From NCBI GenBank assembly GCA_013265495.1, contig MU057848.1, positions 62,001-106,219 of the forward strand: a stretch of 44,219 nt of DNA, read 5' to 3'. Of this stretch, positions 28,020-43,261 are shown one piece after another. The stretch is from Vicugna vicugna. Its lineage: Eukaryota. Each line of letters opens with the position of its first letter. Positions within the stretch are counted from its first letter, which is position 1. A program made the position numbers and the translations under genes. Below the pieces are notes generated by a model. The model was given only the letters and a program-made list of their open reading frames with translations. It did not search any database and had not been told where the DNA came from.

Positions 28020-28091
28020 AGGATCTCCAGATCGCGCAGCGCTCGGAAGGCTCCATCTTCAATGCAGCCAATGCAATGGTTGTCCAGCTGC
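28020..28091 (-). pseudogene. SLIT3: Isolated 72-bp leucine-rich-repeat exon of a SLIT3-like gene (diverged, probably a duplicated copy; could be coding)
   Basis: Acceptor 'ccccttgctttcctgcag|', exon G-CAG-CTG-GAC...GAG-ATC-CT, donor '|gtgagt'. Translates [24 protein letters not shown] versus recalled human SLIT3 [24 protein letters not shown]; the 'DLEIL' ending separates it from SLIT2 (DLEVL) and SLIT1 (GLEVL). The 72-nt phase 2-2 structure is typical of SLIT LRR exons. Confidence 0.88.
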
Positions 28092-30339
28092 CTGCAGGAA
28101 AGCAAGGGGAGAGCATGAAGCCTGCACAGGGCAGCACCAAGGAGCCAGCTGGCCACGGTCCCCCGAGCACCCGGCTCTGCTTGTCCCCGCCAGGAGCTCG
28201 TGTAGAGCCAGCCTGCCTGCCACGCTGCTCGCCTCTCTGCCCTGACTGTCTGGGGGAGCCACACAGACGAGCGCTCCTAAGGCTGTCAGGTCTCAGTAAG
28301 TATTAATTGTGTTTTTGGAGGGGGGGGCAGAAGAGAGTCATTTCATTACATTAGGACATCGAATTCATTACAAGCTGTTACCATCATGCCACTGAAACAA
28401 TTTCTTTAAAGCTAAAGGCCTGTACATCATTGGAGGTCCCTGCTCTGCCCTCTGTGACCTCCCAGAATGCTTCTTTCCCCCGTCTCTCTGGCTCCCTGGC
28501 TCCCTTTTACTGGAGGTTGCAGCCTTCTACTCTGACACAGTGCTAAATCGCAAGGCTTTACCTGCCAAGAGCAGCGAGGGTGCATGGGGAATATACCAAT
28601 TCCAAATTAGACTCAACTAATCTAATTTTATAGTCTTTTTATTACTCTAAGCACCAAATGTCTGTGGTGGCTTGATGCCTCTGTGCTTTGTTTTGGGGCC
28701 TGTCTGGTAGGTCATTCTACTGAAGCATTTTCTGACTAAATACCGATTCCTTCGAACTGCACCAACCAGCATCAACATTAAGGAGATTCACTGATGGAAG
28801 CGTTTCCGATGGGGGGCGGGGAGTATCGTTATGGCCTTAAAGATGTATCACTTCAATTTAAATTAGGAAGAATTAAATGCACCTCTTTTGGGGCTTTTTT
28901 CCCACTTATTGCCCTTTCCGTCTTTTGAGCATGAAGAGCATGCTTTTTTTGTTTGTTTGTTTGTTTTTAAGATGCCTTAACGGATGTACATTCTAGCTGG
29001 GACCTGGGTTTATCTTAGTTAAGGGATAACAGACAAGACACCATTATCTCAAATCCAAATATGCCTGTGTAGGTCTGGAGATTTACTGTGACCACACTCC
29101 AACTTAAATATCATCTATTATAAGTATATAACTTCTTTAATTAAAAAAAGATGTTACACAGAAAATGGTTATTATCACTAGACTGTTATATTTTTTGTGT
29201 GGAACACACCACACAGTCTTTGAGGGAACCGGCCAAAAGAAGTGTGGCTGAACTGAAAAGCTCCCTCCTAGATTCCTTGATCTTCTGTCTCAGACAAAAA
29301 TCAGCCCGTCGCAGGTGGGAGGCTCTCCTGACCCTGGAATCTTCATTTGAAACTTGGGCTCATCTATTCTAAGACAACTGTCTGTGGAAGATGTGTCAAA
29401 GCTGCCTTTGGTAGCCCTCTTGGAGCATTTTATAGCCTGCTGAAGGGAGGTGAAATTACAATTAAAATCTTATTATCATTGAAAAAATATATAGATGCAG
29501 GATTGCACAAAGATGCGAGAATGGAACCTGCACAATCAGACTGACGGAGTGCATCGCCGCAGAAGGGCTCTGCCACGGTCTTGTGGGGGGTGAATCGTCT
29601 CAAAAAACGCTGACGATGCAACACATTAGACCTTTAGGATGAAAGGATAAGCAGCAAATGGGTGTCTTGAGAAGCAGAAGCACTCTGCAGGTTGCCGGGT
29701 TCTGTGTCTAGTGTTCAGAGGTCTTGCTGAAGCCAGCTCACACGGACCTCAGCATTCCTGCTGCCCCGCATTCTTCCAGAGCCTCTCCCAACGTTGAGTT
29801 TACGGAGCACCCTTTTTGTAGATTTCCCATAAGTGTTGGGGCCACCCACACCCCGCAACGGCTCTATGCAGGCAGCCTAGTCCTAGTGCCCAACTTCCAG
29901 ATTTATCATCATTTTAAGGCCCAATGAATCAACAACTCCTGCCCCACGCCAAGGCCACCAAGCCTCACCAAGCAGAAGTGCAGTGGAGCTGGCTTTGGGC
30001 TCCAAGAAATTGTCCAATGATCGTGCTGAATTTGGCAAAAATGGCATCATCCACCTAAGTAGAAAAGTACCTAAACCACCAAATTGGGAAGTGTGGGGCA
30101 GCGAGCAGAGGCGGCAGCTAGTGGCCTATCTGTTGCTGTGCAGACACTCAGAGAGGCCCTGGCTATTAAAATACTATTGATTTGCTAGACGTGTGAAGCA
30201 TTTTCTATTCCTCTTCTTTATGAGAGCAGCGGAAACCAAACAGGAAGTTCTAAACGTACAAAAGTTTACGTGGAAAGAATGCAATTTGCAGGGGAGAAGA
30301 AACTCGGAAGAGAAAAAATGAGGTGGTACAAAGAAACTT

Positions 30340-30535
30340 ACTAACTACTACATATAACAGAGATAAACAACAAGGTCCTACTGCACACCACAGGGAACTG
30401 CATTCGATCCCTTGTAACAGCCTATAATGAAAAAGAATATGAATAGGAACATGTATATATGTATGTGTAACTGAATCACTAAGCCGTACACCAGAAATTA
30501 AGACCTTGTAAACCAACTATAGTTCAACCTGAAAA
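30340..30535 (+). mobile_element. Short L1 3' UTR fragment
   Basis: 'agataaacaacaaggtcctactgcacaccacagggaact...cctataatgaaaaagaatatgaa...gtgtaactgaatcact...tacaccagaaatta'; same family as 12558-12790. Confidence 0.88.
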
Positions 30536-40781: not shown

Positions 40782-40985
40782 CTGGCTCGCGACGGCAGCA
40801 CAGGCGACAGCAAGCGGCGGGAGGCCGAGACCCCAGGCAGCCTTCCTCCTCCGGGAGCTGGTCCAGGAGCACCCAGCTCCCGCCCAGCTTCCTCACGTTC
40901 TGCGCGCGCCCCAGCGTCCCGGCGCCCCGGCGCCCGTGCGCGCGCGCGCACGCGCAGCTTTGGGCGCCCCTCCCCCGCCCGCCTG
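40782..40985 (-). promoter_or_regulatory. Putative CpG-island promoter and non-coding first exon ending in a consensus splice donor (unit 1)
   Basis: On the - strand: GC box GGGCGGGG (~40973-40980), alternating purine-pyrimidine NRF1-like tract 'gtgcgcgcgcgcgcacgcgca' (~40935-40956), ~130 nt of exon-like sequence, then CCAG|GTAAGG (GT at 40781-40780) and a G-rich intron-like start. Confidence 0.55.
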
Positions 40986-43057
40986 CCTGACAGCAGCATG
41001 GAGGCTTGGCTGGGACTTCAGCAGGAGGGATGCTGCGAGTGGGGCCGGGCGGTGGGCCGGTGGAGCTTGGGGCGGTGGGGCAGTGGGGCGAGCCCTGCCC
41101 GCGGCCAGGGCTGGCCGGGCCCCCAACCCCAACGCCCCCCCCACGCCCTCCTTCAGTGTCCTGGCCCCCAGGTAGGACCACCACGGACCCAGGGCCAGGC
41201 CACGCCCCACCAGCCCCACTACCCCTGCTCGCCGATCCCCACCCAGTCAATGCCTCCCCACCCCCTGCCACGCCCGGTCCCCCGATCCACTGCACCCCCG
41301 ACACAAAGCTGCTTCTCCTCACACCCAAGTCCCGCCCCAGGTCTGCGCCCCACTAGGTCCTACGCCACAGCCCCTGTAAACCGCGCTCACCCCTCGTGCC
41401 TCACCCCAGGTCCCCCCACCGTCCGGAGATACTCCCCTAACCCTTCACCTCGGAATGACCCCCCCACCCCTCAGCCGGGTCACTTCTGCTCCCAGCAACC
41501 CCTCCCCCTCAGCCTGTCCGCCCTCACCGCCAGATCGCCCCACACCCGGAGTGCACCCCTACCCCAGATGACCCCATCAGCCCTTTCCTCGCGGGAGCGG
41601 GGCGGTCTGGGCTCCGATCACCCCGGCGACAGCCGCTAGACAGGGATCCCCGGGGCCCACGGCAGGCACACAGCCCTGGGTCCCAGGTGCCCGGCCCCGG
41701 GCGGGCGGGAGTTGAGGCCATTCCACTTCCCTGCCCCACCCCCATGCCCACTGCCTCCTCTGAGGTGCCTCCCATGGGTCAGGGTGTTCCTGGGCGGCAC
41801 ACCGCTAGCCAGTGGGCCTTGGCTGCTTGATGCTGCTGCGGGGAGGGAGGGTGCAGCTGCAGCCCGCCCCCCGGGATGGACAGCAGGCAGCAGTGGCGGC
41901 GGCGTGGGAGGGGTTGCTGCCCTGGGAGAGCCAGTCCACTTGCTCCCATCTCCCCTGCTGCCTGGCCTGGGGGCAACCTCTGCTGCCAGATCTTCCCGGA
42001 AAGAGTTTCCCCCTGTCAGCCTGCCCCTGGGAGGCAGGCCGGCTGTGGCCAGGGGGGCGGGGGGGCGGCAGTGGCAGCAGCAGGGCTGGAGATGGCAGGA
42101 TTGGGGCTGCCCCATACTGGGTGAGGGATGTGCTCCCATTTCCCGCTGTCACTCTCTCTGTCCCTGTAGCTGCTGCCCCCGCCCCCGGCACACTGACTGC
42201 ACCACGCCCACCTCTCAGGAGCAGGCTGACCTGAGGACAAGCCTCCAGGGACCCTGGGGCAGCAGAGGCCGCCCCCAGGCCAGGCCGCGCGGGAGATGGG
42301 AGCAAAGCCATAGGCTGGCCCAGGGCAGCGCCCTCTTCTCCCGCCACCCCCGCCGACGCCGCCTCAGCTGCCGCCGCTGCGGTCTCCCTGCTGCTCCCTG
42401 ACCGAACCGCGCAGGCCTCCAGGAAGGAGGCTGACCTCAACACGTGAGTCCTGCAAACCTGGGGCACCGGACGCTGCCCCCAAGCCAGGCCGCTGGCGAG
42501 ATGGGAGTCAATGCGACGGCTTGCACAGGGCAGCCTCACTCCCGACACCCCACCGCCGCCCTGGGCCCTGACCCAAACATGCCAGCCTCCTGGGAGCCGC
42601 CTGACCTAAAGACGTGGGTCCAGTCAAACTGCGGCGGCAGAGGCCACCCCCAGGTCACGCGGTGGGGGAGATGGGAACAAACGCATGGCTCCCAAGGGGC
42701 AGCCCCCTCCTCCCGCATGCAGCGCGGGAAGGCCACGCAAGGCCTGAGGGCCAGTCTCGGCCGGTCCGGGGCCGTCCATCGCCCTCCCATCTCCCGGGGC
42801 TACCCCCGCTTTGCCAAAGCCGCCTATGAGCGGCGGCCAGGAAAGCCGCGGGGTTCAGCCAATACTAATGGGGGGGTAGGCACCCCAACCAGGGCGGGGG
42901 GCCCCGGGACCCGCCTCAGGGTCCCAACCTGGACGCGCGGCCTGGACCCCACCGACGCACCCCTCCCCTCCCCCCCCCCGGGCGCCTCCCCAACTGCACA
43001 GCCCAGGCCTCACCCGCCGACTCCCCGACCTGCGCGCCCCCACCAGCGCCCCCTTAC

Positions 43058-43261
43058 CTGGCTCGCGACGGCAGCACAGGCGACAGCAAGCGGCGGGAGG
43101 CCGAGACCCCAGGCAGCCTTCCTCCTCCGGGAGCTGGTCCAGGAGCACCCAGCTCCCGCCCAGCTTCCTCACGTTCTGCGCGCGCCCCAGCGTCCCGGCG
43201 CCCCGGCGCCCGTGCGCGCGCGCGCACGCGCAGCTTTGGGCGCCCCTCCCCCGCCCGCCTG
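43058..43261 (-). promoter_or_regulatory. Second copy of the putative promoter / first exon / splice donor (unit 2)
   Basis: Matches 40782-40985 at +2276; donor GT at 43057-43056. Confidence 0.55.

Follow-up and report, generated by a model that had tools for sequence, protein, structure and literature searches.

In primates, pericentromeric and subtelomeric regions reportedly contain duplicon mosaics, a pattern that Bailey and Eichler are said to have described in 2006, in which pieces of unrelated genes, introns included, meet at sharp junctions beside satellites. The copies in primate duplicon mosaics are partial and mostly dead, and they are an occasional source of fusion transcripts. Other tandem arrays, namely the macrosatellites D4Z4 and DXZ4, bear promoters and are built from kilobase-scale, GC-rich units with a CpG-dense core. 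In a camelid, the alpaca, pseudogene-rich blocks of satellite DNA have been reported on chromosomes 11, 17, and 36 (Mendoza-Cerna et al., 2026, Chromosome Res, PMC13751797); the available text of that paper describes fragmentary copies of NEK10, ATF5, FMN2, uS3m, ACTB, and ABHD17A lying between GC-rich, high-identity repeats, interprets the blocks as local duplication, and reports them to be absent from camel assemblies. In the current study, we describe a locus of Vicugna vicugna in which fragments of the genes CEP162 and SLIT3 adjoin a GC-rich tandem repeat. The locus lies in a stretch of 44,219 nucleotides (hereafter the window), the terminal 44.2 kb of a 106,219-bp contig (C939:62001-106219) from a draft assembly of 2.03 Gb in 12,405 contigs. 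These fragments had been proposed to form a new chimeric gene; we conclude that the region is probably not a gene but an old segmental-duplication mosaic, made of dead exons and bordering a GC-rich satellite, a reading carried by its block structure, its junctions, its divergence, the defects of its exons, and the absence of further SLIT3 exons.

The window shows the same juxtaposition pattern as the primate mosaics, and differs from them in its camelid lineage, in holding only three exons, and in having created no open frame. Blocks diverged from their parents over introns as well as exons, abrupt junctions, adjacency to a satellite, and partial gene content without constraint are all found in it; the locus is of the duplicon-mosaic kind already known, and the CEP162/SLIT3 example is new. 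The tandem repeat resembles D4Z4 and DXZ4 in its kilobase-scale, GC-rich units, each with a CpG-dense core, but it is unlike them in that five open reading frames (ORFs) of the unit, scanned against Pfam, gave no match and in that only 1.9 units are assembled. The window and the alpaca blocks are alike in containing gene fragments that vary in length and completeness among GC-rich, kilobase-scale tandem repeats of a camelid genome, and by analogy the case appears to fit the pseudogene-rich satellite blocks of the alpaca as the accessible part of that study presents them (PMC13751797). To blocks of the alpaca type it adds two source genes, CEP162 and SLIT3, neither of which is mentioned in the available text of the alpaca paper, together with base-pair breakpoints, one of them with microhomology (PMC13751797). 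The window’s CEP162 duplicon has a counterpart in Camelus, unlike the alpaca blocks reported absent from camel; it is older than the camel-llama split, a case lacking among the published comparison’s own examples in the text at hand (PMC13751797). A literature search for CEP162 together with camel or with alpaca returned only unrelated work.

Structure of the mosaic

The original prediction had placed a 2276-bp repeat, two CEP162 exons, and one SLIT3 exon on the minus strand and had taken them for a mosaic in which duplicated fragments of two unrelated genes adjoin a satellite. This description holds: all of these elements are present where they had been placed, the SLIT3 source lies on contig C3378 and the CEP162 source on contig C8256, and the junctions are sharp. 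The SLIT3-derived duplicon (15790..31006, minus strand) comprises 15.2 kb of intron sequence with one exon and is collinear, by BLASTN, with C3378:4473288-4487190, with 89-90% identity over aligned bases and a Kimura two-parameter (K2P) distance of 0.105-0.120. The complete SLIT3 gene lies on the minus strand of C3378, with residues 1-68 encoded at 4.90 Mb and the other end of the gene at 4.33 Mb. The CEP162-derived duplicon (31003..37503, minus strand) comprises 6.5 kb of introns with two exons, is inverted relative to its parent contig, and matches C8256:13912216-13918152 (the true CEP162) as well as copies on C621 and C4623 at 86-89% identity (BLASTN against the parent regions); the CEP162 exon on C8256 shares 98% identity with the Camelus and Vicugna pacos CEP162 proteins. 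Short searches located further partial copies of this duplicon on C5574, C11569, and C8145. A processed pseudogene (retrocopy) was considered as an origin and rejected, since both blocks consist mostly of intron sequence and are collinear with the parent genes.

The two duplicons meet at 31003..31006 in a 4-bp microhomology, GCAC, that is present in both parents. At 37503, CEP162 intron sequence switches abruptly to GC-rich subrepeat, an adjacency to satellite that is known from one draft contig, and the left edge of the SLIT3 block (~15790) falls within an AT-rich low-complexity run. In junction-spanning searches of the genome, both sides of the 31003-31006 junction were covered by one of eight matches and both sides of the 37503 junction by one of 57, in each case only by C939. 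A genome search with positions 1500-12500 of the window found no paralogue and only matches of at most 155 bp, so the mosaic lies between single-copy DNA and satellite. The window contains a single run of N (13945-13975), and the interval 15790-44219 is free of N.

Decay of the three exons

Pseudo-exon A of CEP162 (34413..34599, minus strand) corresponds to parent residues 277-340 of alpaca CEP162 (P0019). Aligned with the other three copies, it has lost 1 bp at one place and 4 bp at another that each of them retains, and it contains stop codons in all three frames. Pseudo-exon B (33708..33806, minus strand) corresponds to parent residues 341-368 of P0019, with its native start at 33789 and an alternative acceptor at 33806. 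The native acceptor (33790-33791) has changed from AG to GG, and a new AG at 33807-33808, 17 bases upstream of the native site, involves a window-specific A-to-G change. The third exon is a 72-bp copy of a SLIT3 leucine-rich repeat (LRR) exon (28020..28091, minus strand; borders CAG/G and CT/GTGAGT, with the slash marking the splice site) that encodes residues 163-186 of SLIT3 (P0007). Relative to its parent, five of its 72 bases are changed, three of them altering residues (N to H and R to C) and two silent, and a TGA follows directly after it unless the exon is spliced onward. The deletions in exon A, the loss of the exon B acceptor, and this TGA had escaped the original prediction. The name SLIT3 was given through a 52-residue read-through of the window; the exon alone, compared with PDB, retrieved only generic LRR proteins (best E 0.13) and no specific identity.

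All three exons diverge as fast as the introns around them, with no excess conservation (P=0.18, 0.24, and 0.76 for the SLIT3 exon, exon A, and exon B, respectively). Exon A has 22 substitutions in 187 bases plus five gap columns, against 13.8% in its flank, and exon B has 13 substitutions in 82 bases. The intron sequence next to the SLIT3 exon has also changed: a decayed copy of a small CpG island lies upstream of that exon (28092..28400, minus strand), with 10 CpG and an observed/expected (o/e) ratio of 0.40.

Further SLIT3 exons had been expected to the left of the window. With two SLIT3 proteins as queries, tblastn found no other SLIT3 exon, whether for LRR, EGF, LamG, or CTCK domains, in the window or in C939:1-62000, that is, on the whole 106-kb contig; the original prediction had itself named missing or broken downstream SLIT3 exons as grounds for its refutation. 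Of the exons that flank the copied one in the parent gene, the next (4463315-4463392) is 9.9 kb and the previous (4519923-4520042) 32.7 kb beyond the limits of the duplicated segment, and a genome search with the next exon gave no copy besides those in SLIT1, SLIT2, and SLIT3. Proteins that carry this locus’s versions of the exons were sought by word-matching searches in a library clustered at 50% identity, and neither a protein nor a gene model with these versions was found. With the window’s own exon A, none of 16 candidates matched, whereas the parent exon from C8256 identified CEP162; with exon B, the representative protein library gave seven matches, the best at 82% identity and none near 100%, of which six are unnamed short ORFs on unspliced contigs and one is a Camelus CEP162-like model.

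The GC-rich 2276-bp repeat

To the right of the CEP162 block lies a satellite-related flank (37504..39976), with GC-rich subrepeats of ~160 bp at 37550-37775 and degenerate 44-55-bp units at 38200-39400; its segment 37508-37660 has at least 50 matches, on contigs that also bear the 2276-bp repeat family. The tandem repeat itself (39977..44219), delimited by direct-repeat search, consists of one full 2276-bp unit and 1967 bp of the next (39977-42252 and 42253-44219), which are 97-100% identical. Both the contig and the window end within this array, which is incompletely assembled. The repeat has a GC content of 72% and a CpG o/e of 0.55-0.63 (0.55 for the whole unit), and its family has at least 130 matches across the genome, chiefly on small contigs, including a 99% copy on C7506. 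A perfect 234-bp doubling occupies the last 465 bp of the contig (43755-44219), where unit 1 is single-copy (41479-41709); the doubling represents either an artefact at the end of the assembly or a variant of the unit.

Each unit had been credited with a promoter-like first exon ending in CAG/GTAAG. The motif is indeed present in both units: a candidate first exon (40782..40999, minus strand), with a twin in unit 2, is a GC-rich frame opened by ATG that runs up to CAG/GTAAGG, and CAGGTAAG occurs on the minus strand at 40777-40784 and 43053-43060. The donor-like 8-mer occurs three times in the window against 1.7 expected, however, and three or more occurrences were seen in 22 of 100 shuffles; the motif is therefore not above chance and by itself meaningless. 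Directly upstream of this donor-like site, the 200-bp stretch 40777-40976 has a CpG o/e of 0.95 and falls in the part of the repeat that its family members share most widely. As a separate observation, the segment 40446-40919 (unit positions ~470-943, ~470 bp) is dispersed far more widely than the whole unit, with 173 first-look candidates and copies of 76-85% identity spread over more than 30 contigs. Its plus strand bears a CCAAT motif, its CpG-dense centre is flanked by donor-like sites in both orientations, and a captured gene 5' end is one conceivable origin for it.

The available text of the alpaca study gives satellite units of ~1.8-8.5 kb, among which VpaSat13-2326 (63% GC) is nearest to the present repeat in size and VpaSat04-5242 is nearest in GC content (PMC13751797). 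Compared by primers only, VpaSat13, 04, 10, 02, and 03 gave no match to the 2276-bp unit at up to four mismatches. One VpaSat10 primer has four mismatches to the 44-55-bp subrepeats of the flank at 38.6 and 39.3 kb, and three to four mismatches to subrepeats of the same kind beside the CEP162 copies on C621 and C4623.

Age of the duplications and proposed order of events

The CEP162 copies on C621 (345000-373157) and C4623 (150000-189999) are longer than that of the window, which has just two exons: they extend from CEP162 residue 239 to ~550 and from residue 239 to ~755, respectively. Both contain in-frame stops and frameshifts and are therefore pseudogene copies. Each of them begins beside a GGAGGAGG/CTAGTGTG/(TCTG)n subrepeat of the same kind as that found at 38.2-39.4 kb of the window. 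The CEP162 block of the window has K2P distances of 0.155 to C8256, 0.121 to C621, and 0.135 to C4623, with 0.066 between C621 and C4623, and C621 groups with C4623 at 136 quartet sites, the two other groupings being supported by 22 and 16 sites. These distances, read with a rough clock, suggest that the window’s CEP162 copy split from the duplicate lineage soon after the first duplication. The depth of this split is about that of the SLIT3 duplication (0.11), as would be expected if one rearrangement had joined both.

Models named ‘Centrosomal protein of 162 kDa-like’ are annotated in Camelus ferus and Camelus bactrianus (XP_032318233.1 and XP_074203970-2), the latter species with three isoforms. 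Their products, of 77-86 residues, stem from the same ancient partial CEP162 duplication as the window copy; they include a counterpart of exon B and skip exon A. They belong to the C621/C4623 branch (86-88% identity, against 70% to the window). In these models exon B is flanked on either side by CEP162 exons, and neither a SLIT3 nor a satellite exon is included, whereas the window copy has two exons only. The 86-residue XP_032318233.1 has 86-88% identity to the C621/C4623 type against 65-73% to the true CEP162, and thus carries derived residues of the C621/C4623 type, which places the CEP162 duplication before the camel-llama split. The Old and New World camelids separated more than 11 million years ago, according to the part of the alpaca paper that was available (PMC13751797).

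From these data we infer an order of events, a mechanism, and a lack of function. A partial copy of CEP162 would have been duplicated before the Old/New World camelid split, and several pseudogene copies would have spread beside satellite-type repeats. Subsequently, one such copy may in this lineage have contributed a 6.5-kb piece, containing two exons, that was joined at one end to the satellite (at 37503) and at the other, through the 4-bp microhomology, to a 15.2-kb piece of SLIT3 intron with its one 72-bp LRR exon, presumably by end-joining or by a replication-based mechanism. The three exons have afterwards drifted as introns do, through frameshifts, loss of an acceptor, amino-acid changes, and CpG decay (from 28 to 10). 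Any RNA from the locus would be non-coding and most likely incidental.

Alternative explanations and transcription evidence

The original prediction proposed a new protein-coding chimera, that is, an N-terminally truncated SLIT3-like protein or a CEP162-SLIT3 fusion driven by the satellite. Its arithmetic was reproduced: when exon B is spliced to the SLIT3 exon, the phases agree, and an uninterrupted frame of 44 codons runs from an internal ATG. No long open frame from a credible start was found through the joined exons, however, but only these 44 codons, whose start is the seventh ATG of the proposed mRNA; the six ATGs ahead of it, which the prediction had likewise missed, include that of the satellite exon, whose 81-codon frame stops in exon A if spliced as proposed. 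The stops of exon A in every frame, the TGA after the SLIT3 exon, the lack of excess conservation, and the absence of both further SLIT3 exons on the contig and a second genomic copy of the next one count equally against a coding gene. To our knowledge, moreover, a single 24-residue LRR cannot fold as an LRR domain, as LRR proteins form solenoids. The proposal of a coding gene is refuted in substance, and we regard it as extremely improbable. The shared orientation and the phase match that suggested it are coincidence; with chances of about one in four and one in three, respectively, their combination should be unremarkable in a genome scan. A different concern is that the draft contig misjoins unrelated repeats, such that the blocks would not be neighbours in the animal. 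The assembly is indeed fragmented into 12,405 contigs, this contig ends in satellite with the perfect 234-bp doubling that has the look of an end artefact, and the junctions are known from the assembly rather than from reads. Against such a misjoin, the interval from 15790 to the contig end is free of N, the junctions are clean and one has microhomology, and the blocks are 11-15% diverged from all other copies, which marks them as distinct loci and not as misjoined parents. Sequencing runs that contain words of a 1-kb probe (window 33650-34650) bear on the same point: in a run index that reports shares of sampled words, 20 runs contain probe words, and 18 of them, classed as DNA or unclassified, from several studies and under five organism labels, contain 85-93%, which shows the pseudo-exon copy to be real and says nothing on adjacency. 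An artefact of this kind appears very unlikely.

Several observations weigh against regarding the locus as merely a mosaic of dead exons, and most of them would suit a non-coding chimeric RNA, in which the CpG-dense core of the satellite acts as promoter and first exon of a transcript spliced to the CEP162 pseudo-exons and onward to the SLIT3 exon, with reproductive tissue as one example of where this might occur. The splice borders of the SLIT3 exon are intact and consensus-like, exon A at both ends and exon B at its donor still have consensus-like borders, and the lost acceptor of exon B has been replaced by the new AG, which has a good pyrimidine tract; consensus-like donors and acceptors are all on one strand and follow one another in a spliceable order. 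Nominally, the SLIT3 exon has diverged less than its flanks (6.9% against 11.0%), although not significantly so (P=0.18). The CpG-dense core of the satellite unit, which directly precedes CAG/GTAAGG, is a possible promoter judging from its CpG ratio and its wide conservation in the repeat family. Two RNA runs of one study, both with the label reproductive system (X19 and X20), contain 0.26 and 0.24 of the sampled probe words, a share close to the 0.22-0.25 estimated for exons A and B alone, while two further runs (X21 and X22) had a share of 0.00 and are uninformative. Members of the CEP162 duplicon family can, by analogy, be transcribed, as the Camelus paralogues are annotated genes with several isoforms (X1-X3). 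The order of the duplications, finally, rests on an unrooted quartet tree and is taken from distances and a rough clock. On the other side, the donor 8-mer does not exceed chance, a quarter of the probe words would fit one unspliced fragment of ~280 bases equally well, no protein or model with this locus’s exon versions was matched (none with exon A, and seven matches at 82% or less with exon B), the CpG ratio of the whole unit is low, and the exons are without constraint. We therefore consider a spliced non-coding RNA unlikely, and a long non-coding RNA would, as far as the sequence indicates, be unlikely to matter. It seems rather improbable, too, that the satellite core is a live promoter for such an RNA in reproductive tissue, exapting the CEP162 pseudo-exons (with the new acceptor) and the SLIT3 exon, and that the locus is a transcribed representative of a ‘CEP162-like’ duplicon family that extends across the camelids and was seeded in satellite blocks prior to the camel-llama split. 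The apparent new chimeric gene, read as an old mosaic of dead exons, should accordingly not go forward as a gene candidate.

Other features of the window

A scan of the whole window found no Rfam family or tRNA, and Pfam searches of the 40 longest of the 94 ORFs of at least 100 codons in C939:1-60000 gave no match. A retrocopy fragment of EEF1G (elongation factor 1-gamma; 13708-14175, minus strand; Pfam EF1G, E 5e-30) shares its strand with the pseudo-exons and contains the 31-N run. Over the 750 bp beyond this run, the window matches the start of contig C6170 at 99% identity.

Within the SLIT3 block, an L1-type insertion (24627..27356, plus strand) contains an RVT_1 match at 24822-25199 (E 7e-10), and the same 10 bp of the parent align at both of its sides. 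It is absent from the parent SLIT3 and was therefore inserted after the duplication. A Camelus ferus model annotated as ‘slit 3 protein-like’ (P0013, 1658 residues) has 50 additional residues inserted behind the residue 163-186 exon. In this genome they map to SLIT3 intron sequence (C3378 ~4471404-4471553) immediately beyond the duplicated block and probably represent a mis-predicted exon.

The true SLIT3 gene (C3378 ~4484481-4484800) has a CpG island, with 28 CpG in 319 bp and an o/e of 0.90, that directly adjoins the residue 163-186 exon at its 5' end. This island may mark an internal start site. An intron-4 start reported for SLIT2/mir-218-1, in the part of the preprint available, would be comparable to the candidate SLIT3 start (bioRxiv 10.1101/2020.09.29.319202). 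A side product of the analysis is this small CpG island at an internal exon of SLIT3, where some carnivore gene models start: the bear and dingo SLIT3 models of 1352 residues (P0004 and P0006) begin by reading through the very intron-exon border at which island and exon meet.

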